Positions 1,331 to 62,190 of a stretch of DNA of 64,000 nt are shown here, piece after piece. The DNA is taken from positions 26,034 through 90,033 of the forward strand of contig JAGPFF010000001.1 of assembly GCA_018056725.1 (NCBI GenBank), read 5' to 3'. The position numbers were made by a program, and so were the translations under genes. Source of the stretch: Anaerolineaceae bacterium. Its GTDB lineage: Bacteria; Chloroflexota; Anaerolineae; Anaerolineales; Anaerolineaceae. The notes beneath the pieces were generated by a model, which worked only from the letters and a program-made list of their open reading frames with translations, ran no database searches and was not told the DNA's origin. Every line of letters starts with the position of its first letter. The first letter of the stretch is position 1.

Positions 1331-3781
1331 TCACCGGATGACCACGTTAACCATGATTTTATTCGCCTGTTCAACTGGAACTGGGATGAGGTTACCGCTG
1401 ATATCGATACCGTTTACACAGATGTATGCCTGGTTGCCAGGACCTTTACGTGTCACTTCGATCTCATATCTCGAACCGCGAAAATGCCGCACCGCTTTGA
1501 ACCCGCTCCAGGAGGATGGGAAAACCGGGTCGATGATCAAGCCGTCATAATGAGGGCGAATCCCGAGGATCCATTGCGTCATGGCAACGTAGTTCCAGGC
1601 AGCGGTTCCGGTGAGCCAGGAATTCTTGGCTTCTCCTGGTATGGCGGCTTCCTTGCCTGAAATGGTCTGCGCATATACATACGGTTCACAGCGATGGATC
1701 TCGCTCTTTTCTTCACGCGCTGAAGGATTGATCCGTAAATAATAATCAAAAGCGTGGTCTCCACGACCAATGCGGGTTTCAGCGATCATAATCCACGGGT
1801 TGGTGTGGCAAAAGACACTGCCATTCTCCTTGTAGCCTGGTGGATAAGAGGAAATTTCACCAAGTTCAAGATAATATTGTTGATATGCCGGTGAAACCAG
1901 CACAATGCCATGTTCGCAGGCGAGCTTTTCTGCCACTGCATCCAGCGCCTGGCGGGCACGGTTGTCCTCAAGCCCGATGCCTGCCATGACGCAGATGCCC
2001 TGAGGCTCAATGAAAATTTGACCTTCCGCATTTTCCACTGACCCCACGGGGTTACCGAAATCATTGTAAGCGCGGCGGAACCAGGAACCATCCCATGCTG
2101 CGGTATCAATCACCTGTTCCATCTGTTGCCTGGCAAGCGCGTATTTTTGGCTCTCTGCCTGCCTGCCCAACCTGGTCATGATTTCTTCCATCTCATGGGC
2201 AGCCAGAATGAACTGACCAGCGATGAAGACACTTTCAGCGACTTTACCATCCTTGGCGGTGACGGTCTGGAAGGATTGCCCTGGTGTAGCCGAAAAACTA
2301 TTCAGATTGAGGCAGTCGTTCCAATCCGCTCTGCCGATGAGTGGAAGACCATGCGGACCGGTTCGCTCCAGAGTGTAGTTCATCGAGCGCTGCAAGTGAT
2401 CGATGAGGGGAGTTTCAGACCCGGGTCGGTTATCGAACGGGACGGCTTCATCGAGGATTGACCAGTCTCCGGTTTCTCTCAGATAAGCAGAGACTGCCAG
2501 CACCAGCCACAGTGGATCATCATTAAAATTTCCGCCAATATCATGATTGCCCTGTTTGGTGATGGGCTGGTATTGATGGTAGGCACCGCCGTCCGTGAGT
2601 TGCGTGGCAGCTAAATCCAACAGACGCCGGCGGGCTTTTTCTGGAACCATATGGACAAACCCCAGCAGGTCCTGGGTGGAATCGCGAAAGCCCATGCCGC
2701 GACCGATTCCCGATTCAAAATAGGAAGCGGATCGGGATAAATTGTACGTAACCATCATTTGATACGCATTCCAGGTGTTGATCATGCGGTTGGCATGCAA
2801 ATCAGGTGTCTCAACCTGAAAGAGGGAAAGCAGGCTGAGCCAGTATTCCGCCAATTCAGTGAAGGCGTGATTCGCATTGCCTTCATCCAGATAGTGCGCG
2901 ATCACAGGTTTGACATTCGCCTTATTGATTACCTGACTATTTTCGGACTCGAATTTTCGCTGGGGATCATTCTCGTGGTAACCAAGAAGAAAAATGAGGG
3001 TGCGGGATTCTTCAGGAGCAAGTGAAAGATTCACCTGGTGGACGCCGACAGGCTGCCAGCCATGGGCGATCGAAGCACTGGTATGCCCTTTTTCAACCGC
3101 CAGTGGGGCATCCCAGCCGCGATAGGCACCAAGAAAAGCATCACGGCTGGTATCAAATCCATCTAAAGGTGCTGAACATGCAAAATAAGCGAAGTGATTG
3201 CGGCGCTCGCGATATTCCGTCTTGTGATAAATTATGCTTCCTTCTACTTCAACCTCGGCAATGTTGAAGTTGCGCTGGAAATTTGTCGCATCATCCAGCG
3301 CGTCCCAGAGGCAGAACTCCACTGCGGAAAAAATAGAAAGAGACGCCTGCTGGTCCCGGTGATTGGTGATCTCCACTTTCCAGATTTCCAGGTTTTCATG
3401 CAAGGGAATGAAATAGGTGATGCGCGCATCGATGTGGTTTTTTTCGGAATGGATTGTGGAATATCCCAGACCGTGACGGCATTCGTAAGCATCGAGCTCC
3501 TGCCGCACGGGCTGCCAGGTTGGAGACCAGTAGGATGGGGATTCTTCAGCGTTGTCACGAATATAAAGGTAACGTCCTCCTTCATCAAGGGGAGCGTTAT
3601 TGTAGCGGTAACGGGTTAATCGGCGCAGCCGGGCATCCTGGTAAAAGGAATACCCCCCAGCGGTATTGGAGATAATCCCGAAGTATTCGTCCATGCCAAG
3701 GTAGTTAATCCATGGCAGAGGAGTATCGGGGCGAGTAATGACATATTCGAGGCGAGAATCATCAAAATAACCAAACCGCAT
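1331..3781 (-). CDS. Cellobiose phosphorylase (GH94)
   Basis: 816 aa. The N-terminus MRFGYFDDSRLEYVITRPDTPLPWINYLG and the catalytic-region GRADWNDCLN are typical of GH94 cellobiose/chitobiose phosphorylases. The length fits cellobiose phosphorylase rather than cellodextrin phosphorylase. Confidence 0.9.
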   Translation of the reverse strand: MRFGYFDDSRLEYVITRPDTPLPWINYLGMDEYFGIISNTAGGYSFYQDARLRRLTRYRYNNAPLDEGGRYLYIRDNAEESPSYWSPTWQPVRQELDAYECRHGLGYSTIHSEKNHIDARITYFIPLHENLEIWKVEITNHRDQQASLSIFSAVEFCLWDALDDATNFQRNFNIAEVEVEGSIIYHKTEYRERRNHFAYFACSAPLDGFDTSRDAFLGAYRGWDAPLAVEKGHTSASIAHGWQPVGVHQVNLSLAPEESRTLIFLLGYHENDPQRKFESENSQVINKANVKPVIAHYLDEGNANHAFTELAEYWLSLLSLFQVETPDLHANRMINTWNAYQMMVTYNLSRSASYFESGIGRGMGFRDSTQDLLGFVHMVPEKARRRLLDLAATQLTDGGAYHQYQPITKQGNHDIGGNFNDDPLWLVLAVSAYLRETGDWSILDEAVPFDNRPGSETPLIDHLQRSMNYTLERTGPHGLPLIGRADWNDCLNLNSFSATPGQSFQTVTAKDGKVAESVFIAGQFILAAHEMEEIMTRLGRQAESQKYALARQQMEQVIDTAAWDGSWFRRAYNDFGNPVGSVENAEGQIFIEPQGICVMAGIGLEDNRARQALDAVAEKLACEHGIVLVSPAYQQYYLELGEISSYPPGYKENGSVFCHTNPWIMIAETRIGRGDHAFDYYLRINPSAREEKSEIHRCEPYVYAQTISGKEAAIPGEAKNSWLTGTAAWNYVAMTQWILGIRPHYDGLIIDPVFPSSWSGFKAVRHFRGSRYEIEVTRKGPGNQAYICVNGIDISGNLIPVPVEQANKIMVNVVIR

Positions 3782-3891
3782 ATATGATCCTTAAGGGGTG
3801 AGGGGTTGATCCATGATTACCTTAGATATAGATTTCAGTAATCCCGTTTACTGAGTCAGGGTTGGCAAAAAATTATCCACCATGATCCGCA

Positions 3892-4737
3892 TTATTCTTT
3901 TACCGCGCCCATCGAAATACCGTTGACGATGTATCTTGAAAACAGGAAGTAGATGATGATGATGGGTACCACGGATGTCGCCAGACCCAGGTAGATGGCT
4001 CCATATTCATGACGGTAGACATCTCCGCGCAAAGTCTGCACGAGCATTGGCAGGGTGTATTTATCGCGGGTGGTAATCAAGACGTAGGGGGTGAAGAAGT
4101 TATTCCAGGCGGATACAAATGTAAAAATACCCAGGGTGAAGGCTCCGGGCGCTGCCAATGGGAACATGATGCGGTGGAAGATGCCGAGCTCGCTGGCGCC
4201 ATCGATTCTGCCTGCATCAATCAGATCCTGAATCATCACTGATTCCAGGTATTGCTTGGCGAAGAATACAGCGCTCGCCGAAGCGATACTTGGCAGAATC
4301 ATCGACAGGTAATTATCCTCTAACCCAATCTTAACCATGTAATGGTAGAAACCGATGATGGAGAGTTGCATCGGGATCATGACCAATACAAGAATCGAAT
4401 TGTACAAGAATTTCTTGCCTTTGAACTCATAGGCGACGATACCGTAGGCGGTGAGAAAAGAGAAATAGACTGTGACTACGGTAATGGCTCCGGCAAGTAC
4501 CAAACTGTTGATTGTACCGCGCGGGAGGTCCAACCCTTTGCTAAGCAAGATTTTGTAATTTTCAACGATATGTGTGCTGGGCAGCATGCTGATTCCCTGT
4601 TGGATTTGCAGGGTCGATCGAGTGGCGTTCACAATCAACATCCAGACCGGGATGATGGTGATTACCAGCAGGACGATGAGGAACAGGTAGATCAGGATGC
4701 GCAGGATCTTCGTATTTAAGGTGTAATTGGTTTTCAT
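3892..4737 (-). CDS. Carbohydrate ABC transporter permease (MalG-like)
   Basis: 281 aa polytopic membrane protein with an EAA-type loop DAGRIDGASELGIFHRIMFPLAAPG. RBS GAGGAGG upstream. Confidence 0.85.
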   Translation of the reverse strand: MKTNYTLNTKILRILIYLFLIVLLVITIIPVWMLIVNATRSTLQIQQGISMLPSTHIVENYKILLSKGLDLPRGTINSLVLAGAITVVTVYFSFLTAYGIVAYEFKGKKFLYNSILVLVMIPMQLSIIGFYHYMVKIGLEDNYLSMILPSIASASAVFFAKQYLESVMIQDLIDAGRIDGASELGIFHRIMFPLAAPGAFTLGIFTFVSAWNNFFTPYVLITTRDKYTLPMLVQTLRGDVYRHEYGAIYLGLATSVVPIIIIYFLFSRYIVNGISMGAVKE

Positions 4738-4748
4738 TTTTCCTCCTC

Positions 4749-5663
4749 TTACGCCTTGATCTCAGATTTGGGGTGTTTTTCACGCAGCAGATAGAAAATC
4801 AACATTGCTACGATTGTAGTCATCAGGAAAACCATCACGCCTACCGCAGAGGCTGCGCCAATATGGCCTTGGCTGCTGCGGAAGCGCATATACATCAAAA
4901 TGTTATTGGTTAAAATGGAATTGGCAGGGCTGCCCCGACCATCGGTTAACAGGTATGGAATATCATACATCTGCATTCCACCCACCAGAGAGGTGACCAG
5001 AACATAGATCATTACCGGTTTAATAAGGGGCAGGGTAACATAACGGAAGGATTGCCACCCGCTTGCTCCATCCATAAGAGCTGCTTCATACAACGAAACC
5101 GAAATGGAGGTCATAGCAGCCATCAGGATGATGGTTGTCTGCCCATACCATAACCACCACTGGATGAAAACAACCAGACCGCGCATGGTGGATGGACTGC
5201 GAATAAAATCGATAGCTTCGGGCATAAAACCATTGCGAACCAGGAACTGATTAACCGGTCCATAAAAAGAAAACAGACTGAAGAACAGCGCGGCAATTGC
5301 AGCGGGCATCATCAAGTTGGGCAAGTAGAAGAACATACGCCAGATGCCGCCACCTTTGATCTTCAGCCGGGTGCTTGTGAACCATACAGCCAGCAGCATG
5401 GCGATCCCCAGCTGAGGGATGAAGTTCATCAGCCATAATTCCCAGGTATTTTTGACAGCAGTCAGAAAAGTCTTATCGGCGAACAACCTTTTAAAGTTTT
5501 GGAGACCGATAAAATCCGCGTCCATTTTCATTAGAGTTGTGTTGGTCAAACTCAAACTTAGCGTGTTGTAAACCGGATACAAACCAAACAAGAGAAACCC
5601 TATAATGAAAGGTGCTATGAAGAAATAGCCGTAATGCTCTTTTTTTATTCTCAGGCGTTTCAT
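4749..5663 (-). CDS. Carbohydrate ABC transporter permease (MalF-like)
   Basis: 304 aa with EAA loop EAALMDGASGWQSFRYVTLPLIKP. RBS AAGGAGG upstream. Confidence 0.85.
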   Translation of the reverse strand: MKRLRIKKEHYGYFFIAPFIIGFLLFGLYPVYNTLSLSLTNTTLMKMDADFIGLQNFKRLFADKTFLTAVKNTWELWLMNFIPQLGIAMLLAVWFTSTRLKIKGGGIWRMFFYLPNLMMPAAIAALFFSLFSFYGPVNQFLVRNGFMPEAIDFIRSPSTMRGLVVFIQWWLWYGQTTIILMAAMTSISVSLYEAALMDGASGWQSFRYVTLPLIKPVMIYVLVTSLVGGMQMYDIPYLLTDGRGSPANSILTNNILMYMRFRSSQGHIGAASAVGVMVFLMTTIVAMLIFYLLREKHPKSEIKA

Positions 5664-5736
5664 AATACCTCCTTAGGAAATGAGTCAGTGTATTTCTATA
5701 ATACACTGACTCATTCTTTAGAGTGTGAGCAAATGA

Positions 5737-7194
5737 TTAAGGAATGATCAGATCAGGGAATTCATTGCGGACAGCATCTTTCCATAACTGCCACATCTCT
5801 TCCTCTGTGATCGTTCCTTCAAGATAGGAGTTCAATGGATCGTTAAGGGCACGCTGGATCGCGTCATCCGAACCTTGCATCAGCCGGGCATTCACGGATG
5901 GAGCAGCCGCAGCAAACCCACCATACGAGTTCTGACCACCAAGGAAGCGGCTCATTTCGGAATCGTCGAAGCTCGCGGTGATCTTTTCAACGACAACCTG
6001 ACTGCCAACGAAGTCACCTGCAGGCTGATATTGACCTTCGGGAACGTTGGGATCAATTGCTTTGAGGAATTCGTTGGTATACACTCCGGTTGCCCAGTTG
6101 GTCAGGTTCTCCTCATCCAGGGTGCAGAAGCGAACAAATTCTTTCGCCAGTTCCTGCTTCTTGCTATCTTTCATCACACCTAACCAGGTGCCACCCCATT
6201 GATATGCCATGGGTCCATTGATGACTGCCCAGTCACCCGTGGTATCATGCGTGCCATCTGCTGATTTGGCATTTGGGGCTAATACATAAGGCAGACCCCA
6301 GGTGGGAAGGAAGTAAGAGAAGATCTGTTTGGGGTTGCCTTCGGCATCGGTAAGTGTGTCATTCATGCCGGCGAACCAACCTTCCTGCCATTGGGTCGCT
6401 TTGGCTTCATAGCCGTTGTCGCGGAAAATTTTCACCGTCTCAACCATCTTATTGACCATTGGGTCAACGGTCAGAGTGTTATCAACCACCCATGGTTGCT
6501 CGCGGTTGGCATAGAAGAGGTTCATGAAATCGCCATTGGAGGCAACCATGTAGGTGTTACCACCGGATTTTTCCTTGACAACCTGAGCTGCCGCTTTGTA
6601 TTTATCCATATCGCTCAGGATTTCCTGGATCTGGGCAGGATCATCCGTGCCAAAGTATTCCTTAGCCAGACTGCGGCGGTAGAAGAGCGCGCCCGGGGTT
6701 GCCTGGTAAGAGTATGCCTTGACGATACCATCATAGGTGCCGACTTCATAAACGAATGGGTAGACTTTTAATTCTTCGGCATAGGGCATCAGATCAGAAA
6801 GGTCCGAGAGGAAATCACTTTCCACATAGCTCTTAACGAAAGCAGCTTCCAATGCAACCACATCAGGCACGGCTTCGGTGCCGAGCGTAGCCATCAATTT
6901 GGTCTGATACTCGCCATTGGTCATCGGGATCATCGTATAGACCACATCGACATCGGGATGCTTGCCTTCAAAGGCAATCGCCATGGTCATAATCTCGTTG
7001 GTGAAGGACCAGACATTTAAAACGGTTTTCCCTTCAGCCGGGGCTTCAGTCGCCGGGGCTTCGGTTGCTGCGGGTGCTTCGGTAGCCGGGGGTTCGGTTA
7101 CTGCCGGGGCTTCAGTCGGTGCCGGTGTGGCACAGGCTGCCAGCAGCATTGCTGCGATCAGAACAACAGAAAACAACATGGTAAAGCGTTTCAT
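5737..7194 (-). CDS. Extracellular sugar-binding protein of the ABC importer (lipoprotein with Pro/Thr/Glu/Ala linker)
   Basis: Signal peptide plus lipobox LLAAC, followed by a TEAPA-type linker and a family-1 solute-binding fold. I moved the start to the ATG at 7194 because AAGGAG lies 6 nt upstream. The ORF-track start at 7209 lies inside that RBS. Confidence 0.8.
   Translation of the reverse strand: MKRFTMLFSVVLIAAMLLAACATPAPTEAPAVTEPPATEAPAATEAPATEAPAEGKTVLNVWSFTNEIMTMAIAFEGKHPDVDVVYTMIPMTNGEYQTKLMATLGTEAVPDVVALEAAFVKSYVESDFLSDLSDLMPYAEELKVYPFVYEVGTYDGIVKAYSYQATPGALFYRRSLAKEYFGTDDPAQIQEILSDMDKYKAAAQVVKEKSGGNTYMVASNGDFMNLFYANREQPWVVDNTLTVDPMVNKMVETVKIFRDNGYEAKATQWQEGWFAGMNDTLTDAEGNPKQIFSYFLPTWGLPYVLAPNAKSADGTHDTTGDWAVINGPMAYQWGGTWLGVMKDSKKQELAKEFVRFCTLDEENLTNWATGVYTNEFLKAIDPNVPEGQYQPAGDFVGSQVVVEKITASFDDSEMSRFLGGQNSYGGFAAAAPSVNARLMQGSDDAIQRALNDPLNSYLEGTITEEEMWQLWKDAVRNEFPDLIIP
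7033..7128 (-). repeat. Imperfect tandem repeat encoding the (T/A)EAPA low-complexity linker of the binding protein
   Basis: The peptide TPAPTEAPAVTEPPATEAPAATEAPATEAPAE is encoded by reiterated ggggcttc(a/g)gt(c/t)gc units. Confidence 0.8.
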
Positions 7195-7287
7195 TTTTTT
7201 CTCCTTCAAGGATATTTTGTGGATCGATCCATACGGACGACAGAATTTTGTGTTTAATCACCTCCTCTTTTCCTCATCAGAACATCT

Positions 7288-7301
7288 TGAGAGCGGTCTC
7301 A
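7288..7301. promoter_or_regulatory. Candidate LacI-family operator (CebR/CelR-type box) upstream of the ABC importer operon
   Basis: TGAGAGCGGTCTCA differs at one position from the perfect palindrome at 8381..8394. It lies 94 nt upstream of the binding-protein start. Confidence 0.55.
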
Positions 7302-7336
7302 TGAAAAGTATAAAAAAATTTACCCAAGCGTGTTCC

Positions 7337-8356
7337 TCATAGTAGTTTTGCTCCACACGAATCGCGTATGATCAATTCGGTATCTAAGATGATTCGTCTA
7401 GCTGGTTTGGTACCGTTTTCGATCAAATCGATCAGTAATTCCACTGCTTTGACCCCAAGCCTGGTGATTGGCTGTTTGATCGTGGTCAATGGCACTTTTA
7501 ATTGTCTGGCGATTGGAATATCGTCGAACCCGACCAGGGCGATATCTTCTGGCACACGCAAGCCTGCCTCTTGAATGGTGCGCATTGCTCCGGCAGCCAT
7601 GATGTCTGATTGGCAGAATACTGCATCCGGCGCAAGGGGGAGCAGGGTTTTCATCCCCAAATAGCCGCTCACCTCGGTAAAATCACCTTCCACAATCCAC
7701 TCATTACCTGGTTCACAACCGGCTGCGCGCAACCCCTTTCGGTAGCCTTCGAGACGATCCTCGGTTACGGTGCTGTCATGATTGCCAGTGATGGTGGCAA
7801 TCCGTTTGCGCCCAAGATTCAAAAGGTGTTGGGTTGCTTTCATCGCCGCGCTTACATTATCAATATCAATAAAGCTGAGACCATCCACAACAAAGGGGCG
7901 CCCAATGATTACTACAGGAAGATTGGATCTGGTAAGCCGGTCGATGATTAATTCATCCGGGCGACCCGCCTGAATGAGGATCCCATCCAGGAATCCCCGC
8001 CGCGAAATACGCGGGAGAATCTTTTCTTCATCCTCACGGTTACCAGCCAGGAAAAGGGAAAGAGACAGATCATTGTTGTTGCAACCAAACGCGATGCCCT
8101 GGGTTAAGTGAGGGAAAAACGGATCAGTAAAAAATGAGGCAACACTGCGTGGAAGCAGCAAGCCGATCATGTGAGAACGCTGGGAAGCGAGCGAGCGCGC
8201 TGCCGCATTGGGCTGATAGCCCGTGGATTGAATGACCTTCTGCACTCGTTTGCGGACTTCAGGGCTCACGTTTGGGGAATCATTGATCACCCGCGATACA
8301 GTTGAGCGGTGTACACCAGCCAGTTTTGCCACATCTTCAAGGGTTAATTTTTCCAT
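7337..8356 (-). CDS. LacI family transcriptional repressor (cellobiose-locus regulator, CebR/CelR-like)
   Basis: N-terminal HTH LEDVAKLAGVHRSTVSRVIN followed by a periplasmic-binding-protein-like sugar domain. I trimmed the start to MEKLTLEDV (ATG at 8356) because the longer ORF runs through the promoter and operator. Confidence 0.85.
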   Translation of the reverse strand: MEKLTLEDVAKLAGVHRSTVSRVINDSPNVSPEVRKRVQKVIQSTGYQPNAAARSLASQRSHMIGLLLPRSVASFFTDPFFPHLTQGIAFGCNNNDLSLSLFLAGNREDEEKILPRISRRGFLDGILIQAGRPDELIIDRLTRSNLPVVIIGRPFVVDGLSFIDIDNVSAAMKATQHLLNLGRKRIATITGNHDSTVTEDRLEGYRKGLRAAGCEPGNEWIVEGDFTEVSGYLGMKTLLPLAPDAVFCQSDIMAAGAMRTIQEAGLRVPEDIALVGFDDIPIARQLKVPLTTIKQPITRLGVKAVELLIDLIENGTKPARRIILDTELIIRDSCGAKLL

Positions 8357-8380
8357 TGAAAAGGATTTTTCCTCGAGGTA

Positions 8381-8394
8381 TGAGAGCGCTCTCA
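8381..8394. promoter_or_regulatory. Perfect 14-bp palindromic operator TGAGAGCGCTCTCA (CebR/CelR-type box)
   Basis: Perfect inverted repeat lying between the predicted -10 element and the LacI start codon. It differs from the actinobacterial CebR/CelR box TGGGAGCGCTCCCA only at the symmetric third and twelfth positions. Confidence 0.6.
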
Positions 8395-8405
8395 ATTCTA
8401 TTCTG

Positions 8406-8434
8406 ATGATACATTCAATTTTGCCGCGTGTCAA
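8406..8434 (-). promoter_or_regulatory. Sigma-70-type promoter of the LacI gene
   Basis: On the reverse strand: TTGACA, a 17-nt spacer, then TATCAT. Confidence 0.5.
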
Positions 8435-12025: not shown

Positions 12026-12055
12026 AAAAAGCGCCTTCCAATTCTGAAAGGCGCT
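12026..12055 (-). terminator. Rho-independent terminator of the mevalonate operon
   Basis: Reverse strand: AGCGCCTTTC agaatt GGAAGGCGCT followed by TTTTT, 22 nt after the DUF35 stop codon. Confidence 0.7.
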
Positions 12056-12077
12056 TCAAATCAAAAATTCAATCCAT

Positions 12078-12479
12078 TTACGCTCTTATCACCGGTCGGA
12101 ATTTATACCCGTAGACCAGGATCCCCTTTTTCTCGCCATCTTCGCGCAGACGGCGGGTAACCATTTCCACCGGCATGCCGATCTTCACCGGCTCGTTGCC
12201 CAGATCGGTTAATTGCGCCGTGACCATAGGACCTTCATCAAGCGCCACCACCGCCACGGTGTAGGGCGCATTTTGCTCGTACCCTGCTGGAGCTTCGCGC
12301 ATGACGGTATAAGAATACACTTTGCCTTTTCCGCTGAAGGCGTACTCGGTTTTGGCTTCACCGCCGCATTCCGGGCAAACATCGCGTGGAGGGAATATTT
12401 TCGCATCACAATGCGGACAAACCTCTCCAATGAGGCTGTAGCGTTGCTTTTTCATTCGCCAGTAGCGTGGATTTTCCAT
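12078..12479 (-). CDS. DUF35 OB-fold/zinc-ribbon protein (scaffold subunit of the thiolase/HMG-CoA synthase complex)
   Basis: 133 aa. Rubredoxin-like CPHCDAKIFPPRDVCPECG followed by an OB-fold. RBS AAAGGAG. Last gene of the HMGR-HMGS-thiolase-DUF35 operon. Confidence 0.85.
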   Translation of the reverse strand: MENPRYWRMKKQRYSLIGEVCPHCDAKIFPPRDVCPECGGEAKTEYAFSGKGKVYSYTVMREAPAGYEQNAPYTVAVVALDEGPMVTAQLTDLGNEPVKIGMPVEMVTRRLREDGEKKGILVYGYKFRPVIRA

Positions 12480-12580
12480 TATGACTCCTTTTCGTTCCTT
12501 TCCTGCACGTGCGATGATAAGTGTAGAGGTCGAATGCTATCAATTCCTATCAGGTTTGTTCCGAGAAGCTGGAATTTTAC

Positions 12581-13744
12581 TTAATCGCTCACTCTTTCAA
12601 GAACATGGGCAATGGCTGTGGATGCCGCGCCTCCCAATGAAAGGGTAAGCGCTCTACGCGCGTCTGGCACCTGGTTGGCACCTGCCTGCCCGCGTAACTG
12701 GGTCACCGCTTCCACAATCTGGTAAACACCAACTGCACCGATGGCATTTCCACGTGCCAGACTGCCCCCCATTGTCATCAGCGGCAAACGACCGCTCAAC
12801 GCAAAGTCGCCATCCCGCGCCTGCTGCCAGGATCGACCGACATCCGCCATACCGCATGTTTCCAGTGTCAGCGCAGCATAAATCGAAAAAGCGTCATCCA
12901 GTTCAAATAAACTGATCTGCTCAGGCTTGACCTCTGCCTGCTGTGTTGCGGCAAAGACGGCGTTTGCCGCCGCGCTGAAGGAAAGAGGTTCGTAGCGGTC
13001 ATGCCAGGAAAGCGAGTCGCTGCTGGCGCCGGTCCCGGCGATCCGGATAATCGCATGAGGGTAATCAGCCGGGAGCCGGTCAAGGCGGGTGAGAATGACG
13101 GCAGCCGCCCCATCGGCGTACGATCCGCCGTCAAAACGGTTCAAGGGATCACTGGTTTGAGCTCCACGGTTGTAGGCTTCGGCTGAAAGGGGTTGGCGAT
13201 GAAAAGCATTGGGGTTGGAGGTTGCATTGGCGTGTGCCAGGAGAGCAAAACCACTCAGAGCTTCGGAGGATAAATCATGTTCATGCAGATAACGGTGCTG
13301 GATCAGAGCGGCAAGACCGGAGCTGGTGAGCCCGGGAATGGCTTCGAAGTCAAAATCCATTTCCTGGGTCAACCGGGCTTCAGCTTCCTCCCGAAGCAGA
13401 TCGGACCACTTTTCCACGCCCAGCACGGCAACTGTGTCGGCGTAACCACTGAGGATGGAAAGAACGCCAAGGCGCAGCGCGGCAGCTCCGCTGGCACCGG
13501 CAGCTTCCGTGGTATAGGATTCCACCCCATTAAGGTGGGCATAATCAGTGAAGAGGGCGCCAAGGTTTGCCTGGTGCGAAATCATCGAAGCCAGCATATT
13601 CCCGATATATAGCGCGTCGGGCTTGAGATCTCTACTGTCATGAATTGCCTGCATCAGCGCTCTGACCCCCATTGAACGCAGGCTAAGATCATAATGCTCG
13701 CCGACCGGGATTTGACCGATTCCTGCAATGACAACTTCAGTCAT
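12581..13744 (-). CDS. Thiolase-fold protein (archaeal/SCP-x type acetyl-CoA acetyltransferase homologue) lacking the canonical catalytic Cys and His
   Basis: 387 aa from MTEVVIAGIGQ (ATG at 13744, RBS GAGGAG). Thiolase-like motifs are present (GVEKWS, DGAAAVIL, QLRGQAG). However, it reads AAGASG where ACASG is expected and GNAIGAVG where GHP.GATG is expected. Confidence 0.8.
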   Translation of the reverse strand: MTEVVIAGIGQIPVGEHYDLSLRSMGVRALMQAIHDSRDLKPDALYIGNMLASMISHQANLGALFTDYAHLNGVESYTTEAAGASGAAALRLGVLSILSGYADTVAVLGVEKWSDLLREEAEARLTQEMDFDFEAIPGLTSSGLAALIQHRYLHEHDLSSEALSGFALLAHANATSNPNAFHRQPLSAEAYNRGAQTSDPLNRFDGGSYADGAAAVILTRLDRLPADYPHAIIRIAGTGASSDSLSWHDRYEPLSFSAAANAVFAATQQAEVKPEQISLFELDDAFSIYAALTLETCGMADVGRSWQQARDGDFALSGRLPLMTMGGSLARGNAIGAVGVYQIVEAVTQLRGQAGANQVPDARRALTLSLGGAASTAIAHVLERVSD

Positions 13745-13754: not shown

Positions 13755-14831
13755 TCAGTCCATGTCAATTTTGCCGCGGAAGCGGGCGTACGTGGCATAG
13801 TTGATCTCCGTCCTGCGGGCGAGATAGTCTGCCACGGTCGGGGCAAGCGCGCGCCGTTCTTCGATACGCTCTGTTACCACATGATAGAAGGCATCGGATC
13901 CAGCTCCTGAGCCATAAGAAACTTGCAAAATACGGTCACCGGGTTTGGCGATATCCAGCACCGCGCTCAAACCAATCATGGTGGCGCCAGCGTAAGTGTT
14001 ACCGATTTTCGGCACGAGTAAACCCGGCAAAAGTTGTTCATCACTGAAGCCAAGGTCTTTTCCAGCTTTCATCGGGAAGCGGGGATTGGGTTGGTGAAAT
14101 ACCGCATAGGTAAAATCGGCTGCGGTCATTCCCAATTCATCCATCAATACCCGTCCGGCGGTTTCCACATGGCGGAAGTAAGCCGGGTCGCCGGTGAACC
14201 GCTGGCTGTGCTCGGGATATTTCTGCTCGGGACGGCGCCAAAAATCGGGCGTGTCGGAAACAAAAGAATAGCTGGCTTCAATAAGAACTGCCGCTTCTTC
14301 CGCAGGACCGATAACGAACGCCGCGCCACCGCTGCTGGCGGTGTATTCCAGCGCATCACCGGGTTTTCCCTGCGCCGTATCCATGCCAATTGCCATGGCG
14401 TAACGTCCCATGCCTGAGCCAACGAGAGCAATCGCGGCAACCATCGCCTCGGTGCCAGCTTTGCAGGCAAATTCCCAATCCCCTGCCTGGATGTGATTTG
14501 AAGCGCCAATGGCTTCCGCCACAATGGTGCCGCTGGGTTTCACGGCATAGGGGTGGGATTCTGACCCTACCCACACGGCGCGGAGTTCCTGCGGGTTGAT
14601 TCCCGCGCGCGCCAGCGCGTTCCGGGCTGCTTCGATGGACATGGTAATGACATCTTCATCCAGCCCGGCAACGGATTTTTCCTGCACCGGGGAGCCTTTG
14701 GGGGAGCCCGTCCAGAGTTGCGAGATTTCGCTGCCTGGCAGGCGATAGCGGGGAATATAGGACCCATACCCGATAATTCCGGTTTTGCGGTCCGTTCGTA
14801 ATAAAAGGGATTTGTTATGTGGTGTATTCAT
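13755..14831 (-). CDS. Hydroxymethylglutaryl-CoA synthase, archaeal type
   Basis: 358 aa from MNTPHNK. Contains [21 protein letters not shown] (Glu), [10 protein letters not shown] (Cys), FHQPN (His) and GNTYAGA. Confidence 0.85.
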
Positions 14832-14835
14832 CCGG

Positions 14836-16113
14836 TTATTTTCTCCATTCCTGAAGAATTTGTGCCGCCCGATCTGCGCGGATCGAATGCTCACGAATGA
14901 GCTGGCGGGCGAGCCGTTCTACCTCTTCTCCAACTGCGCCTACCGATAACGCTATCTGACGGGCATGGAGGCTCATGTGACCGCGCTGGATCCCCTCGGT
15001 GGCAAGAGCGCGCAATGCTGCCAGGTTCTGAGCCAGCCCCACCGCCACGATGATTTGTGCCAGTTCTGAAGCGGAGGCAACTTGCATCATCTTGAGGGCG
15101 GTTTTGGCTGTGGGGTGCGACCGCGTGGCTCCGCCAACAATACCCACTGCCATCGGCATTTCAAGAAATCCTTTCAGGTTACCGTTGGAATCAGATTCCC
15201 ATCTGCTCAGGCTGGTGTAACAGCCCCCGCGGGCGGCATAAGCGTGCGCGCCGGCTTCCACCGCTCGCCAGTCATTCCCGGTTGCGATCACCACTGCATC
15301 CACACCATTCATGATGCCTTTATTATGCGTGGCGGCACGGTAGGGATCAGCCACAGCAAAAGCCCATGCTTCGAGGATACCATCACGAACCTTTTCAGGC
15401 GCATAAGCCCCAAACCCCAGCGAGGCAAGCGGAATGGTGCACTCCGCACTTGCCAACCGCCGGTCTGCCAGGTTGGAAAGGATGCGTAAATGCGGACGTC
15501 CACCGCTGATTTCCGCCACGAGTGGAGCGATTTGTTCCAGTGCAGTGTTGATGGCGTTGGCGCCCATGGCGTCGCGAACATCATAAATAAGATGGAGGAC
15601 TAAAAATGGACCGATGGGGGAATCATGGATCTCCCGCACTTCAAGATCGCGTGGACCCCCGCCAAAACGTGAAAGGACGGGGTCGACCTGTGCCGCCAGC
15701 GCCATCAGTTCTTCACGTCTTGCCAGAATTCTGGCTTTCGCCTCGGCAAGATCGGAAAGATCGAGTAATTGTAGCTGACCGATCATCTCCGGAGGGGTCG
15801 ACTGCGTGGTAAAACCGCCACCCTCACGTGTCAGGCGCGCCATAAAAGAAACTGCCGCGATCACTGAAGGTTCTTCAATCGCCATCGGAACGATGACGTC
15901 ATGACCATTGATGAGAAAATTACGCGCCACGCCCAGGGGAAGGTTGTAAACGCCGATAGCGTTCTCGATCATGTGATCCGCCTGTTCGACAGTCAGCCCA
16001 TGACTGCCATCCAGAGTCATCAACTCTTCCGGGGTCAGATGCGCTTCCTCCGCGAGGATTTCCAGCCGGTTAAAGAGCGGGAGTTGGTAAAACTTGGATG
16101 AATGTTGTTCCAT
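14836..16113 (-). CDS. Hydroxymethylglutaryl-CoA reductase, class II
   Basis: 425 aa. Contains [47 protein letters not shown] and SLHARQIA. Confidence 0.9.
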
Positions 16114-16969: not shown

Positions 16970-17974
16970 TTAATCTGCCGGGAAGGTCTCCTTACACTCC
17001 GGTGCGTTGGAACAAATGAACGTCTTACGGGGTTTGAGGAAAGGACGGTGGGTGGTTTTTAGAATCATCGGCGTTCCACACACCGGGCAATCTGGCTCTA
17101 CGGTGAGGTTCATAAACGGCGCCTTATCTGCCAGTGTAACCTCGTCTGAATAGGCATCCTGACGGGAGAAGACCACAGCCGAATGGGCTGCCGGGGCAGG
17201 GACGGCGGCAGGTTGCAGTGTGGGGCGGATGGCTTGAGGTTTGGATTCCGGTTCTTCTTCTTTCAGCGCTTCATCAGGCAAAGAACGGCGAAAACGGGTG
17301 GCTTCAATCACTTTAAGAAAGGCACGTCCGTCGTAAAGGAAGATGGGTTTGCCTTCAGCCCACAGCCTGGCTTGGGGGGTAATCAGTCCTGTTGTGACGA
17401 TGGCGCCAGCATCGGCATTGGAAGCCCGAAGCACGCCATAAAAATCTCGTACCACGGGTTCCCCAACTTTGCCCCGATACTTCTTGCATTGCACCAGCAC
17501 GGTTTCACCCTTGCGGGTATGCACGATCAGATCAATCCCGTGATCACCGGTTGATCCGACTTCTTCCACCCGGTTGCCCTGATCACGATACGTTTTCGCC
17601 ACCAATTTCTCAAATTCCGATGGTGAAAGGATTTGCATATCATCAATGGATTTAATAATGTGGTGTTTCCGCTGTTCTTCGAGGACAATCGCAAAGGCAA
17701 AGGGCAGAAGGAAGATCCCGATCAGAAGGAAGTATTGAGAATTGGCGGGTTCAGGAATGAGCTGGAAAGTCTCCATTTTCAGGAAGTAAAACACCGCGCG
17801 CAGTACGGCAAAGAACACCCACAGAATCACCAGGGATTTGATAGATGTGCGCAGCATGGTGGAAAATCCGTCGCGCCGTTTGGCAATGCCAAAAAGAAGC
17901 CCGATAAACATCACTGGCCAAAGACCAACGAGGAATTTACCGGCAGTTGTGAGTAATTCGAGAATTGTATCCAT
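16970..17974 (-). CDS. Membrane-anchored Mrr-like restriction endonuclease domain protein with C-terminal topoisomerase-type zinc ribbon
   Basis: N-terminal hydrophobic spans, then an Mrr_cat core GDHGIDLIVHT...VLVQCKKY, a Pro/Ala linker, and CPVCGTPMILK...FICSNAPECK. I trimmed the start to MDTILELL (RBS GGAGGT). Confidence 0.7.
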   Translation of the reverse strand: MDTILELLTTAGKFLVGLWPVMFIGLLFGIAKRRDGFSTMLRTSIKSLVILWVFFAVLRAVFYFLKMETFQLIPEPANSQYFLLIGIFLLPFAFAIVLEEQRKHHIIKSIDDMQILSPSEFEKLVAKTYRDQGNRVEEVGSTGDHGIDLIVHTRKGETVLVQCKKYRGKVGEPVVRDFYGVLRASNADAGAIVTTGLITPQARLWAEGKPIFLYDGRAFLKVIEATRFRRSLPDEALKEEEPESKPQAIRPTLQPAAVPAPAAHSAVVFSRQDAYSDEVTLADKAPFMNLTVEPDCPVCGTPMILKTTHRPFLKPRKTFICSNAPECKETFPAD

Positions 17975-18076
17975 TCCAATACCTCCACGCAATTTATTGC
18001 GGTTCGGAGATATTGTTGCATGAATGATGCCAAAAAAACTTAAGGATGAAAAATTTATCTGGGGAGGATACCCTGA

Positions 18077-24945: not shown

Positions 24946-27105
24946 TTAGGCTGCTTTTTCTTTGCGCATAGCTGGCAGGTAGAAATCGGTGGTGTATTCC
25001 TTGAGCATGCGCCGCAGACTGAACTGGGGGATCAATGTGCGCAGATCTTCACGTACCAGTTTCAGCCATTCCACCGGGATCTTTTCTTCATTGCGGTCAT
25101 AATAGAGCGGGATAATTTGTTTCTCCAAAGTATTATAGAGACTCTCGGCATCGGCGGCATCCTGCTCTTCGGGGTTGGAATAATCGATGTCTTTACCGAT
25201 AGACCAGCCGTTTTTGCCATTATAACCTTCCCGCCACCATCCATCCAACACGGAGAAGTTCAGCACCCCGTTTATGGCTGCCTTCATGCCGCTGGTGCCG
25301 GAGGCTTCGTTGGGGCGGCGCGGCGTATTGAGCCAGACGTCCACTCCCTGCACCAGATAGCGTGCCACATTAATATCGTAATCTTCCAGGAAGACCAGGC
25401 GACCGGCACTTCGTGAATCCTTCACAGCGCGATAGACCTGTTGAATCAAAAGCTTGCCCGGCTCATCTGCGGGGTGAGCTTTACCGGCAAAAACGATCTG
25501 CACCGGGCGATGAAGGTCGGTGATCAGCGAAATGAGACGATCGAAATCCCGGAAGATCAGGTTGGCACGCTTGTAAGTGGCAAAACGCCGGGCAAAGCCG
25601 ATGGTCAGCGAGTATGGCTCCAGGAAGAGTCCTCCTGCCACCACCTGAGACGGGGTGAGCAGACCGTTTTGCCATTGAATGCGGGTGCGCTCGTTGGCGA
25701 AGTTGACCAGCTTGTTCTTGAGATGGCGGCGGATTGACCATAATTCATCATCCGGGATGTTCTGGATGCTGTTCCAGAATGCCGGGTCCTCAATGTGATC
25801 CACCCAGCTTTCGCCGAGGAACTGGTCGAACAGCATGCCCATACGTCTGGCAAGCCAGGTGTGGGTGTGAACGCCATTGGTGATATAACGGATGGGAACT
25901 TCTTCTTCCTGGCGGTCTGGCCAGAGGAAATTCCACATGCGGCGAGAAACCATGCCGTGAAGTTCCGAGACGGCATTGGCGCGCTCGGAAAGCTTGAGTG
26001 CCAAAACCGGCATGACGAAAGATTCACCCCAGGATTGGGTCTGCCTGCCGAGGTCAATGAACTGGTCATGCGTGAGACCCAATTCCGACCAGATGTTGCC
26101 GAAATACTTGTCGATAAGCCACAGCGGAAACTGGTCATTTCCGGCAGGAACGGGCGTATGGGTGGTGAAAACATTGGAAATCTTCACCTGATCCCAGGCA
26201 TCGCGGAATTCGACGCCATTTTTGACTTTCTCGCGGATACGTTCAATCGCCAGGAATGCGGAATGTCCTTCGTTCATATGCCAGACGGAGGGATCATAAC
26301 CCAGCCGGCTTAGCGCGCGTACTCCGCCCATACCCAGGAGGATCTCCTGCGAAATGCGCACTTCCAGATCATTGCTGTAGAGACGCTCCGTCAATTGCCG
26401 GTCAGCGGGTGAATTTTGCTCAACATTGGAATCCAGCAGATAGAGCCGCACACGACCGACTGCCATCTCCCAGATGCGTGCAAAGACCTTGCGCCCCGGA
26501 AGTTCCACGGAAACAGTGAGCGGTGCGTGGTTTTCATCCAGCAGGGAAATGAGCGGGAGCTGATTGTAGTCGATAATGGCGTTGCGCGTCTCCTGCCAGC
26601 CATCCTCGGTAAGGTGTTGGACGAAATATCCCTGGTCGTAGATGAAACCCAGCCCCACCAGAGGCAGACCGAGATCGGAAGCTTCTTTGAGGTGATCACC
26701 TGAAAGGATACCCAGACCTCCGGCATATACCGGAAGAGATTCGTGCAAGCCGAATTCAAAGGAAAAATAAGCAATGGTGTCCGTTGTGATCTTGGGGTAG
26801 GTGGTATGAAACCAGGTGTCTTGCTGTGCCAGATAGGCATCCATACGAGCGAGCGTACGGTCGTAATACTCAAGATAAGCGGGCTGTGCCGCGGCACTAT
26901 TGAGCATGGGGCGTTCCACCTGGTGCAGGAAAGCCACCGGATTGTGGGAGACGTTGTCCCACAATAAGGGATCAATCAGCTTGAACAGCCGCTGACCATC
27001 CTGGTTCCATGCCCACCACAGGTTATGAGCAACCCGGGTCAGTCCATCGATGCGGCGGGGAAGGTTAAAATTGTTTGGAAATTCACGAATTATGTTTGTA
27101 GTCAT
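24946..27105 (-). CDS. glgP: Alpha-glucan (glycogen/maltodextrin) phosphorylase, GT35
   Basis: 719 aa. GGLGILSGDHLK, and the PLP-lysine context EASGTSGMKAAINGV. Confidence 0.9.
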   Translation of the reverse strand: MTTNIIREFPNNFNLPRRIDGLTRVAHNLWWAWNQDGQRLFKLIDPLLWDNVSHNPVAFLHQVERPMLNSAAAQPAYLEYYDRTLARMDAYLAQQDTWFHTTYPKITTDTIAYFSFEFGLHESLPVYAGGLGILSGDHLKEASDLGLPLVGLGFIYDQGYFVQHLTEDGWQETRNAIIDYNQLPLISLLDENHAPLTVSVELPGRKVFARIWEMAVGRVRLYLLDSNVEQNSPADRQLTERLYSNDLEVRISQEILLGMGGVRALSRLGYDPSVWHMNEGHSAFLAIERIREKVKNGVEFRDAWDQVKISNVFTTHTPVPAGNDQFPLWLIDKYFGNIWSELGLTHDQFIDLGRQTQSWGESFVMPVLALKLSERANAVSELHGMVSRRMWNFLWPDRQEEEVPIRYITNGVHTHTWLARRMGMLFDQFLGESWVDHIEDPAFWNSIQNIPDDELWSIRRHLKNKLVNFANERTRIQWQNGLLTPSQVVAGGLFLEPYSLTIGFARRFATYKRANLIFRDFDRLISLITDLHRPVQIVFAGKAHPADEPGKLLIQQVYRAVKDSRSAGRLVFLEDYDINVARYLVQGVDVWLNTPRRPNEASGTSGMKAAINGVLNFSVLDGWWREGYNGKNGWSIGKDIDYSNPEEQDAADAESLYNTLEKQIIPLYYDRNEEKIPVEWLKLVREDLRTLIPQFSLRRMLKEYTTDFYLPAMRKEKAA

Positions 27106-27208
27106 TCAAACTCACTATTAATAATATGGGCTCAGCAGGCATACCTCACCCGCGATGAAAGTAATAACGATTTGACTTTTACGCTGGGGGGATTTTTAAG
27201 CCGCAAAA

Positions 27209-27217
27209 ATTATACCA
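27209..27217 (-). promoter_or_regulatory. Candidate extended -10 promoter element for glgP
   Basis: Reverse strand TGGTATAAT (TGnTATAAT), about 100 nt upstream of the glgP ATG. No properly spaced -35 element. Confidence 0.3.
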
Positions 27218-27537
27218 GAATGTCAAGAGTAGACTTATGATTTTGTGGATTTGAAAGGTGTGTGGTGTGCGGTCTATGTGGCTTAATGACGTGCCCTCTC
27301 AATTATGAATGACGAATCATCATCCTATCTAACAAAAATTGAATCCTCTCATCCGGTATTAAATGCACTGCATTTTGTCTGAAAACCGGATCCTTCAATT
27401 GTATGGAAGGAGTCAATTCACCGGGTTTAAATTGAGATTGGGATCGAAGTGTTTTCCAGCGCCACTGGTAAGGATCTAAAAAGTACCCGCATCAGCACAT
27501 TGACCACGAGGGAGGCGGGGCGCTTGAAAGCGCGGGG

Positions 27538-27933
27538 TCAAAACTCGGTGGGAATGCGGGCGATGATGGTAAAGAAGGGCTGCAATGATTTAACCAGCCC
27601 CATGGCTTTGAAAACATTGCCGCTAAAGTGGAGGTCGCCATTCATGACCGCGTTGACGGGATCGAGCTGCCCCTTGAACACGCGTTCATAAGTTCGGTAA
27701 TCCCCGCTCAATGCGAACTCCGTTTTCACCGCTTCGGGACCCGCCAGGCGGAAGGTTTTAAGGCTGCCCTGCGCAGTTTCCACAACAAGCGTCTTGGTCT
27801 GACCCTCCGGGCAGTTTTCTACCGTCATGGCGATGGAGAGATCCGTGCTGCCGGTGGTTTGCGGGCTGATACCGGCGCGGAGCACCTTTTCAGCGGCAGT
27901 CATCCAATCTGTACTGAGAAAGCGGTTAGTTGC
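27538..27933 (-). CDS. SCP2 (sterol carrier protein 2-like) domain protein
   Basis: 131 aa from MATNRFLS (RBS AGGAGG). C-terminal GDLHFSGNVFKAMGLVKSL is typical of the SCP2 fold. The longer ORF-track version overlaps the GH1 gene. Confidence 0.7.
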   Translation of the reverse strand, partial: ATNRFLSTDWMTAAEKVLRAGISPQTTGSTDLSIAMTVENCPEGQTKTLVVETAQGSLKTFRLAGPEAVKTEFALSGDYRTYERVFKGQLDPVNAVMNGDLHFSGNVFKAMGLVKSLQPFFTIIARIPTEF

Positions 27934-27955
27934 CATTTTTCCTCCTGAGCGTGAA

Positions 27956-29287
27956 TTAATTGGATGGAAACAACGAATCGAATATTTCCGGAACAAAACG
28001 GGCGACCATTTTGCTGGAAATGCCATTTCTTTGACAGATGTCTTCATAAACATCCACGCTGGTGCGGCGGATGCGCTGCTGGCTGGCAAGATCAAGCCCC
28101 CACAAGCCGAAGCGTTGAGTCCAGCCGCGCTCCCATTCAAAGTTGTCAATCAAGGACCAGTGAAAATAGCCTTTGATTTGCCAGTTGAAGTTGGCAGCGC
28201 GCCAGACCTGGTGCAAATGTTCAATCAGGTAGCGCGGGCGAAGAGTATCCGCTTCGTCCTCAATGCCATTTTCTGTAACATAGATGGGCAGCTCGTATCC
28301 ATGCGCCCACTTAAGTCCGTCCCACATTCCAGCGGGAACATTGGCAATAAAACCGGTCGGACTGAGGAGTGCCCCCCGTGGTGGGCGCCGCCGACCGAAC
28401 ATTTCTCCGGGCAGGAACGGGTCAAAAGAGATGATATCCCGGCTGTAATAATTCAAACCGATAAAATCCTGGGTGCCGGCAGCTTCGGGAAGGGTGATTT
28501 TTTTAAGTACCAGATTGAGCTTTCCGGTTGAGAGGCAGTTGTTAAATGCGCGATTGAAGATCTGATTTTGGATCGTGAGTGGCAGACGGTCGAGGGTGTT
28601 AAAAGGATTGGCGGGCGAAAAACTGCGATAGTTTGTGGCAACGCCAACCTGAGCATCCGGTTGAAGTTCATGAATGACGCGATAAGCAGCGGCATGCCCG
28701 CGGATGAGGTTGGCAAGAACACGTGCGGCAAGACCAAGGTCATGTTTGCCGGGCGGAAAAACGCCTTCCACCCAGCCACTTAGAGCGTATACATTTGGCT
28801 CGTTGATGGTAATCCATAAGGATACATCCCCTTTAATTGCGGAAACTACATGGCGCACGAAGCGGGCGAAAAGGGCGGGAGTGTCCTCATTTTCCCACCC
28901 GCCGAGATCGGTGAGCCATAATGGGTCGGTAAAGTGATGAAGCGTGACCATGGGAGTGAAGCCGTTTTTTTTCAGCCAATGGATGATCTCAATGTAACGG
29001 GAAAGTGCTTCTTCATCCCACCGGTCGGGTTCGGGCTGGATACGGCTCCATTCTATGGATAGCCGGTGGGCATTTTGTGCGCTGTCGCGGGCACGCTGGA
29101 GATCCTCCTCCCAGCGACCGCCCCACCAATCACAGGCGAGCCCGGATTTCTGGTCCTGAAGGATACGCCCGGGTTCGTTTTCCCAACGCGACCAGTTGTT
29201 GTTAGTGTTATTTCCTTCCACTTGATGAGCGGCTGTGGCGGTTCCCCAAAGAAACCCGCGTGGGAAAAAGAAAGTACCTTCAGGCAT
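27956..29287 (-). CDS. GH1 beta-glucosidase
   Basis: 443 aa from MPEGTFFFPRGFLWGTATAAHQVEG (RBS AAAGGAGG). Acid/base TINEPNV and nucleophile YVTENG. Confidence 0.9.
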   Translation of the reverse strand: MPEGTFFFPRGFLWGTATAAHQVEGNNTNNNWSRWENEPGRILQDQKSGLACDWWGGRWEEDLQRARDSAQNAHRLSIEWSRIQPEPDRWDEEALSRYIEIIHWLKKNGFTPMVTLHHFTDPLWLTDLGGWENEDTPALFARFVRHVVSAIKGDVSLWITINEPNVYALSGWVEGVFPPGKHDLGLAARVLANLIRGHAAAYRVIHELQPDAQVGVATNYRSFSPANPFNTLDRLPLTIQNQIFNRAFNNCLSTGKLNLVLKKITLPEAAGTQDFIGLNYYSRDIISFDPFLPGEMFGRRRPPRGALLSPTGFIANVPAGMWDGLKWAHGYELPIYVTENGIEDEADTLRPRYLIEHLHQVWRAANFNWQIKGYFHWSLIDNFEWERGWTQRFGLWGLDLASQQRIRRTSVDVYEDICQRNGISSKMVARFVPEIFDSLFPSN

Positions 29288-29332
29288 CCATCCTCCTTTG
29301 AGGTGATGTGGTTTGATTATAGCCCAAACAAT

Positions 29333-29358
29333 AAAAAAACCCCGCCAAGAGCGGGGTG
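29333..29358 (-). terminator. Rho-independent terminator after the DegV gene
   Basis: Reverse strand: CCCCGC tcttg GCGGGG followed by TTTTTTT. Confidence 0.7.
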
Positions 29359-29375
29359 AGGAGGGCAGTGGTTGG

Positions 29376-62056: not shown

Positions 62057-62081
62057 TGTCGTTTATCCTGTAGTGATGTAT

Positions 62082-62134
62082 AAAAAAAACCCCAAGGTAC
62101 TGCCTTCCATGCTGAAGGAATTGCACCTTTGAGG
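62082..62134 (-). terminator. Strong intrinsic terminator hairpin plus T8 lying 25 nt upstream of the second CDF gene (terminator of the first gene and/or attenuator)
   Basis: Reverse strand: CCUCAAAGGU gcaa UUCCUUC agcaug GAAGG cagu ACCUUGGGG UUUUUUUU. Confidence 0.7.
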
Positions 62135-62180
62135 CTTACTTCGGTCTCAATCAGACTGGTGAACCTGTCTGATAAAAAAA

Positions 62181-62190
62181 ATTATATCAT
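62181..62190 (-). promoter_or_regulatory. Candidate extended -10 promoter (TGATATAAT) between the two CDF genes
   Basis: Reverse strand TGaTATAAT. The possible -35 element CTAACA at 17-nt spacing is weak. Confidence 0.3.

Follow-up and report, generated by a model that had tools for sequence, protein, structure and literature searches.

In archaea, the thiolase and the HMG-CoA synthase (HMGS) of the mevalonate pathway share a fused CoA-binding site within a complex in which a DUF35 protein holds both together; archaeal HMGS is reported to be inactive alone and the thiolase, ACAT, to be insoluble alone (PMC12960953). Channelling is the rationale given for this complex, and an H284A substitution at the HDxF position of its thiolase abolishes HMG-CoA formation (PMC12960953). 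The same three gene families occur in a mevalonate operon carried on a 64,000-nucleotide stretch of DNA from an Anaerolineaceae bacterium (GenBank assembly GCA_018056725.1, contig JAGPFF010000001.1, positions 26,034 to 90,033), hereafter the window. Its four genes are co-directional on the minus strand and encode, in this order, a class II HMG-CoA reductase (HMGR), an archaeal-type HMGS, a thiolase-fold subunit (THL) and a DUF35 protein. All three catalytic residues of the thiolase are replaced in THL, which probably persists as a pseudoenzyme that supports its HMGS partner. No paper found in a literature search describes a thiolase subunit without its Cys in the mevalonate operons of Chloroflexota.

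The closest counterpart is the Methanothermococcus thermolithotrophicus thiolase/HMGCS/DUF35 complex (PMC12960953; 6esq), whose three gene families are adjacent and in the same order as here. THL matches the fold of its thiolase with a template-modelling (TM) score of 0.91–0.93, and the Glu-Cys-His-Asn tetrad of HMGS is intact in both systems. The two differ in that the HMGR gene is included in the operon here, and in that the thiolase is catalytic there and without catalytic residues here, so that the first, endergonic step and channelling into HMGS would be impossible in THL. The closest solved structure is that of the Pyrococcus furiosus thiolase PFC_04095 (7YVY; TM 0.90/0.94), which shares with THL the Ala of its HDAF motif but keeps the Cys, the HDxF His and the GHx His, none of which THL has.

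Other relatives have lost chemistry from one subunit of the same assembly. PhlABC of Pseudomonas protegens, MucABC of S. macacae and the P. fluorescens ACAT/HMGS-DUF35 (PMC12960953; 5M3K, 9VBO) are bacterial descendants of the tripartite architecture. In PhlABC and MucABC, a dead HMGS-like subunit of thiolase fold is retained and is needed for assembly and activity (PMC12960953), and PhlC/MucB superpose on THL with TM 0.86–0.88. The loss there is the reverse of that seen here: HMGS has lost its Glu-Cys-His-Asn tetrad while the ACAT-like subunit keeps the Cys and the GHx His, and these systems have left the mevalonate pathway, whereas the THL operon sits with HMGR. With an intact HMGS tetrad, and Gly83 and Asn333 in THL, the locus does not belong to the PhlABC/MucABC group of Friedel-Crafts acyltransferases.

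The catalytic positions of THL were read from phmmer alignments to the PDB, which are near full length and ungapped around the motifs. The best matches are 7yvy (E-value 3.4e-82, 41% identity) and 6esq (5e-49). Where both structures read EAACASG in the CxS motif, THL reads EAAGASG; ARGHPVGATG of the GHx motif is replaced by ARGNAIGAVG, and EVHDAF of the HDxF motif by ELDDAF. Each residue required of the thiolase subunit of the archaeal complex is therefore absent: Gly83 stands for the nucleophilic Cys, Asp283 for the HDxF His and Asn333 for the GHx His. Each of these substitutions lies one nucleotide from the canonical codon (GGT/TGT, GAT/CAT and AAT/CAT). An earlier note on this DNA, made from the letters alone, had claimed that the Cys was replaced by Gly and the catalytic His by Asn, and had placed the only Cys of the protein, in LETCGM, outside both motifs. 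All of this is borne out, the single Cys being Cys297, and Asp283 is a third lost catalytic residue that its list lacked.

That note had proposed alignment with characterised thiolases as a check, and the structural comparison agrees with the phmmer result. The AlphaFold model of THL (pLDDT 87.4, pTM 0.91) superposes on 7yvy and 6esq/6et9 with TM 0.90–0.94, so the motif alignment is not an artefact. In this model of the monomer, two loops that do not vary within the clade, at residues 50–60 and 111–140, have poor order. Together, the superpositions and alignments make THL a well-folded member of exactly the thiolase type found in the archaeal complex. The protein scores below the NCBIfam equivalog cut-off of NF053570 (AcCoTHIOL_METTL; 250.1 vs 600 bits) and below the PRK06064 subfamily cut-off (303.7 vs 420 bits).

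The distribution of the loss was examined in two protein database searches, from which the 120 closest and 115 further relatives were listed, and in a scan of GTDB with one genome per species, which gave 325 matching stretches; the best 80 were kept as species loci. None of the 235 relatives listed has Cys at position 83. The 120 closest proteins listed are from Anaerolineae, with 56–98% identity, and every one of them has both Gly83 and Asn333; position 283 is Asp in 103, Cys in 14 and Ser in three. The best 80 of the 325 stretches also all come from Anaerolineae, and they include the cultured species Anaerolinea thermophila, A. thermolimosa, Leptolinea tardivitalis, Longilinea arvoryzae and Bellilinea caldifistulae. 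In these 80, position 83 is G, Q, E, S or D and in none of them Cys, which answers the earlier suggestion that orthologous operons be surveyed for the same substitutions. The HMGR-HMGS-THL-DUF35 order is kept in nearly all of the species loci that are long enough. More distant Cys-less relatives (40–51% identity), one of them named Anaerolineales bacterium, likewise adjoin an archaeal-type HMGS, usually together with HMGR and DUF35. On these alignments, the Cys loss is ancient and a trait of all Anaerolineae sampled rather than of one genome.

The residues that replaced the catalytic ones have not settled. Among the species loci, position 283 is D, C, S, Y, W, T, H or F. Position 333 holds N with rare exceptions, F or H in the species loci and also E or D once the 115 further relatives are added; Asn333 is found in 80 of 86 related loci. 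Read in the order 83-283-333, the triad is Q-D-N in Bellilinea, E-T-N in A. thermolimosa, G-T-N in A. thermophila, E-W-F in Longilinea and G-C-N in Leptolinea, and the patterns in the 115 distant relatives include G-Y-N, G-F-N and G-H-E. Two more positions vary as well: 285 is A, S, P or T, and 113 is W, Y, V, F, I, M or others in the species loci. Trp113 occurs in 94% of the 120-member clade, where 87% of 53 canonical relatives have Met, a residue of the pocket. In a rough neighbour-joining tree without support values, all operon-linked Cys-less forms make up one clade, and the subclades in which His283 is retained (G-H-E, G-H-N) fall outside that of the query. This topology fits a single ancient loss of the Cys, after which the remaining catalytic positions drifted. 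Position 328 (GGC) was considered as a relocated nucleophile and rejected, being Cys in most homologues, Ser in the query and its nearest relatives, and Q, L or F elsewhere. No column of conserved Cys exists across the Cys-less family, which rules out a relocated nucleophile.

Gln occupies the former Cys position (EAGQASG/EAAQASG) in Bellilinea and relatives (L054, L059, L063, L071 and L072). One protein, P0130 (L086), has Gln83 and keeps His and Asn (Q-H-N), a combination that recalls the KSQ/chain-length-factor decarboxylases.

The loss is confined to a few columns of an otherwise constrained protein. Of the alignment columns whose conservation reaches at least 85% in 53 canonical Cys/His/His relatives, the Cys-less clade replaces only four (C83G, M113W, H283D and H333N); F141 becomes variable there, and 41 other conserved columns are retained. 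By this comparison, the loss is highly selective. The reading frame is intact and full length in all 80 species. Against relatives with 69–72% protein identity, the nonsynonymous divergence (dN) of THL is 0.20–0.24 while the synonymous divergence (dS) is saturated (>1.5), and THL is under purifying selection. This dN resembles that of HMGR and amounts to about twice the HMGS value and three times the DUF35 value.

HMGS and DUF35, the partners of THL, are intact in sequence. The earlier note had recognised the gene set of the archaeal complex and catalytic contexts in both HMGR and HMGS, and Pfam, NCBIfam and PDB matches agree with it. HMGR scores 391.7 bits against NCBIfam TIGR00532 (cut-off 259.95) and contains the class II contexts [19 protein letters not shown] and GHMSLHAR. 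HMGS, whose start was taken as the ATG that agrees with its homologues, exceeds the cut-offs of NCBIfam PRK04262 (528.8 bits) and TIGR00748 (518.2 bits) and matches 6esq_I with an E-value of 1.8e-123. Its tetrad consists of Glu91, Cys123 and His246, in the contexts already noted, together with Asn278; it is intact and is conserved in 81–82 related loci. DUF35 combines a rubredoxin-like Zn ribbon with an OB fold. Its Cys21, Cys24, Cys35 and Cys38 are present and conserved in 70–72 loci, and it is the most conserved of the four operon genes (66–90% identity, dN 0.06–0.08).

Two irregular gene calls were seen among related operons. In the closest relative of the window (L088, GCA_032942435.1), HMGS is called at 4696–5625 as a protein of only 309 amino acids that matches no Pfam family; its identity is 94% over 295 amino acids, whereas its neighbours reach 98–100%. 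A frameshift or a mistake in the assembly of that metagenome-assembled genome (MAG) probably explains the short form. HMGR and HMGS are similarly fragmented in L089.

A thiolase needs an acetyl-S-enzyme intermediate to make acetoacetyl-CoA. With the Cys and both His missing, THL should be unable to form either the acetyl-enzyme or acetoacetyl-CoA, and its sequence predicts a protein without thiolase activity. The earlier note had offered two readings of such a subunit, an active site put to a new use or a pseudoenzyme with a structural role. The second of these is the probable one: THL would be a pseudoenzyme, kept because archaeal-type HMGS depends on a thiolase/DUF35 scaffold. What marks a pseudoenzyme is found here, since all essential residues are replaced in a protein that is under purifying selection and in a conserved genomic context, and the differences in replacement residues among orthologues speak against a precisely built new catalytic site. 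Synteny and the conservation of DUF35 suggest that THL, HMGS and DUF35 assemble. In such a complex, dead THL would serve HMGS as its scaffold and probably contribute part of the CoA site, and HMGS would perform the sole chemistry. DUF35 and THL would be retained because archaeal-type HMGS is nonfunctional by itself, and acetoacetyl-CoA would be delivered by a separately encoded enzyme.

A candidate source of this acetoacetyl-CoA, which the earlier note regarded as unexplained, has been found. A family of canonical paralogues, represented by P0123, belongs to the same SCP2/archaeal family as THL and has the same length, with approximately 42% identity. The members listed from a protein search with P0123 as query are at least 73% identical to it, and 119 of 120 carry the C-M-H-A-H residues; the few that are named come from MAGs labelled Anaerolineales, Chloroflexota or Chloroflexi bacterium. 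Against the P. furiosus thiolase, P0123 shows 49% identity, and it scores above the PRK06064 cut-off, which the Cys-less proteins do not reach. In the rough tree, P0123 and P0128 form the Cys-bearing group nearest to the Cys-less clade. In the two loci read (L085 3352–4518, L091 10001–11167), the paralogue lies away from HMGS and DUF35 and has DegV, aldo-keto reductase, metallophosphoesterase and ParA-like neighbours. A Cys/His/His paralogue of the P0123 type is the best candidate, being a thiolase that could plausibly supply acetoacetyl-CoA in trans. The alternative candidate is bacterial thiolase II, which is described as universal among bacteria (PMC6107057). A tblastn search with Escherichia coli AtoB found no thiolase II in the window or in 86 related loci, and Pfam annotation of all larger open reading frames of the window found neither another thiolase nor KAS III, and no additional gene of the mevalonate pathway. 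When plasmids were searched with AtoB, no Chloroflexota record appeared among the matches listed or the ten commonest genera, and the literature search found nothing specific on thiolase II in Anaerolineae.

Several observations weigh against reading THL as an inert scaffold with a supplier in trans. Gly83, Asn333 and the loops EAAGASG and GGxKARGNPxGAxG are conserved beyond what a purely inert site would need, and Ser85, Glu111 and Asp284 persist; a remaining part in ligand binding or catalysis could account for these conserved loops and residues. THL evolves at about the rate of HMGR and not strikingly faster. Complex formation and the scaffold role are argued from homology and synteny. On the side of the supplier, no DUF35 gene lies within 10 kb of the P0123-type paralogue in two loci, no contig carries both the canonical paralogue and dead THL and no locus holds a second copy, and neither thiolase II nor the canonical paralogue occurs in the 64-kb window or in approximately 1.3 Mb of related loci.

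A rival reading is a repurposed site, in which THL would perform Cys-independent chemistry, either an Ltp2/Sal-like aldol or retro-aldol reaction or a KSQ/TbSLP-like decarboxylation of malonyl-CoA that feeds HMGS. The steroid side-chain aldolases of the Ltp2-ChsH2(DUF35) and Sal-Shy(DUF35) pairs (6OK1, 9MYR; PMC12329534) have the SCP2-thiolase fold (TM 0.82–0.85 to THL) and carry Gly in place of the nucleophilic Cys (Gly89 in Sal). As the earlier note had pointed out for Ltp2, they work with a DUF35 partner. The precedent holds to this extent and fails at the catalytic residues. Ltp2 has YDHF and Tyr344, and Sal has YDCY with Tyr302/Cys304, whereas THL has DDAF and Asn333, neither the Tyr/Tyr nor the Tyr/Cys pair, with Ala285 at the position of Sal Cys304. 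Asn333 lies 50 residues past position 283, which equals the Tyr294–Tyr344 spacing of Ltp2, a correspondence drawn from spacing alone. The DUF35 domain that partners Ltp2/Sal is carried on a MaoC-type hydratase within a steroid-degradation cluster, whereas here it is a free protein of 133 amino acids with HMGS, HMGR and unrelated genes as neighbours, and no hydratase or steroid-degradation genes are nearby. Membership in the Ltp2-type aldolases was rejected on the absence of the catalytic Tyr residues. TbSLP is a Cys-less relative that weakly decarboxylates malonyl-CoA. Some orthologues of THL have Tyr283 (YDAY) or Gln83 (Q-H-N in P0130, Q-D-N in Bellilinea), resembling YDxF and KSQ. The high conservation of Asn333, Gly83 and the motif loops and the retention of Ser85, Glu111 and Asp284 speak for a repurposed site. 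Nevertheless, positions 83, 113, 283 and 285 differ between orthologous operons, and an intact HMGS needs no extra chemistry to convert acetoacetyl-CoA to HMG-CoA. A repurposed site is accordingly disfavoured and judged unlikely; the pseudoenzyme reading fits better with lost residues, drifting replacements and a gene and operon that remain constrained.

Thiolases are obligate dimers. A distinctly unlikely alternative is that dead THL pairs with a live canonical paralogue inside the HMGS/DUF35 complex, in the style of a ketosynthase and its chain-length factor, which would preserve channelling with one active site per dimer. Such pairing would agree with the reported insolubility of the archaeal thiolase without its partners (PMC12960953), with a canonical paralogue family in Anaerolineales/Chloroflexota MAGs that lacks a DUF35 neighbour of its own and with the position of P0123/P0128 as the nearest Cys-bearing group. 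The two genes are, however, unlinked in every locus and share no contig, the paralogues are only about 42% identical, and the tree that pairs them has no support values. It is very unlikely that THL is non-inert in either of two specific ways, namely by malonyl-CoA-driven, decarboxylative formation of acetoacetyl-CoA at the Cys-His-Asn site of HMGS, with THL offering a KSQ/chain-length-factor-like pocket, or by a ketosynthase/chain-length-factor-style heterodimer with the live paralogue. If one of these were true, the mevalonate pathway of Anaerolineae would begin without the classical thiolase step inside the complex, a new way round the thermodynamic obstacle that channelling overcomes in the archaeal complex. 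A functionless gene in decay, or a sequencing or assembly artefact, might be suspected because each key substitution is a single-nucleotide change. The chance of this is practically nil: the same states recur in hundreds of independent assemblies, and the gene has its own ribosome-binding site and tight operon spacing. Decay and artefact are both refuted by 120 of 120 homologues, by the full-length frame in the loci of 80 species and by a dN far below dS.

While the evidence at the level of sequence is solid, the functional reading is inferential. If THL is dead, the first step of the mevalonate pathway, the one route to isoprenoids reported from this part of the phylum (PMC6107057), is mis-assigned in these genomes. 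In the work of Hoshino and Gaucher, the Chloroflexi gene counts as an archaeal AACT, and they mention, as a general remark only, many "other AACT homologs" without the CH motif (PMC6107057). JGI/IMG labels the Cys-less proteins (P0020, P0021, P0027 and many others) as acetyl-CoA C-acetyltransferase, and NCBI labels them as thiolase domain-containing protein. The name acetyl-CoA C-acetyltransferase is very probably wrong for the whole Cys-less clade. A pseudoenzyme THL would also be the mirror image of PhlABC/MucABC, with an HMGS that is still dependent on its partner after the partner lost its chemistry. Channelling would then be dispensable in these anaerobes and the need for it would become testable, and the operon would offer engineering a natural HMGS scaffold uncoupled from thiolase activity.

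Features of the mevalonate operon in the window, with the codons at the replaced positions of THL.
Feature	Position	Strand	Evidence or location
Class II HMG-CoA reductase (HMGR), 425 aa, first operon gene	14836..16113	-	Pfam HMG-CoA_red, E-value 2.4e-114
Archaeal-type HMG-CoA synthase (HMGS), 358 aa from ATG 14831	13755..14831	-	NCBIfam profiles, PDB match
Thiolase-fold subunit (THL), 387 aa, without catalytic residues	12581..13744	-	Pfam Thiolase_N and Thiolase_C_1
Codon GGT, Gly83, position of the nucleophilic Cys (CxS motif)	13496..13498	-	phmmer alignment
Codon TGG, Trp113, replaces Met of the VEKM motif kept in canonical relatives	13406..13408	-	
Codon GAT, Asp283, position of the HDxF histidine	12896..12898	-	phmmer alignment
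Codon AAT, Asn333, position of the GHx histidine	12746..12748	-	phmmer alignment
DUF35 protein, 133 aa, last operon gene	12078..12479	-	Pfam OB_ChsH2_C, E-value 2.3e-22; zf-ChsH2, E-value 2.1e-09
Strong terminator-like hairpin, 13-bp stem and T run, operon end	12028..12057	-	3' of DUF35

The spacers between the four genes are 4, 10 and 101 nucleotides long. The ATG of THL is preceded by a GAGGAG ribosome-binding site that overlaps the stop codon of HMGS. The THL-DUF35 spacer (12480–12580), at 101 nucleotides, is long for a tight operon; across 71 loci its median is 141 nucleotides, mostly within 40–320. An RNA element was looked for in this spacer and rejected, since no Rfam family matches it and its length varies across loci. 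The spacer contains a promoter-like site (TTGATA-18-TATCAT, 12543..12514), and DUF35 may have its own promoter. In three distant relatives (L081, L089 and L090), a divergent GAF-GAF-HisKA_3 histidine kinase gene lies directly upstream of HMGR, accompanied in L081 by a response regulator; the kinase is absent from the 64-kb window. Where present, it could regulate the operon.

The remaining genes of the window are unrelated to mevalonate and include a GH94 phosphorylase, a sugar ABC transporter, a LacI regulator, an Mrr-type nuclease, LysRS, GreA and others. Adjacent to the operon, a minus-strand gene at 16970–17992 encodes a protein of odd domain combination: membrane segments at the N-terminus, a restriction endonuclease domain of Mrr type and, at the C-terminus, a Cys-rich tail that resembles a Zn ribbon. 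A sugar-utilisation cluster on the minus strand (1331–8434) contains the GH94 phosphorylase, of cellobiose/chitobiose type, with two ABC permeases, a solute-binding protein and the LacI regulator. A GH1 glycosidase and a glycogen-phosphorylase-like gene lie at 24946–29419, and two tandem cation-diffusion-facilitator genes (Cation_efflux and ZT_dimer) occupy 61148–63144 on the minus strand.

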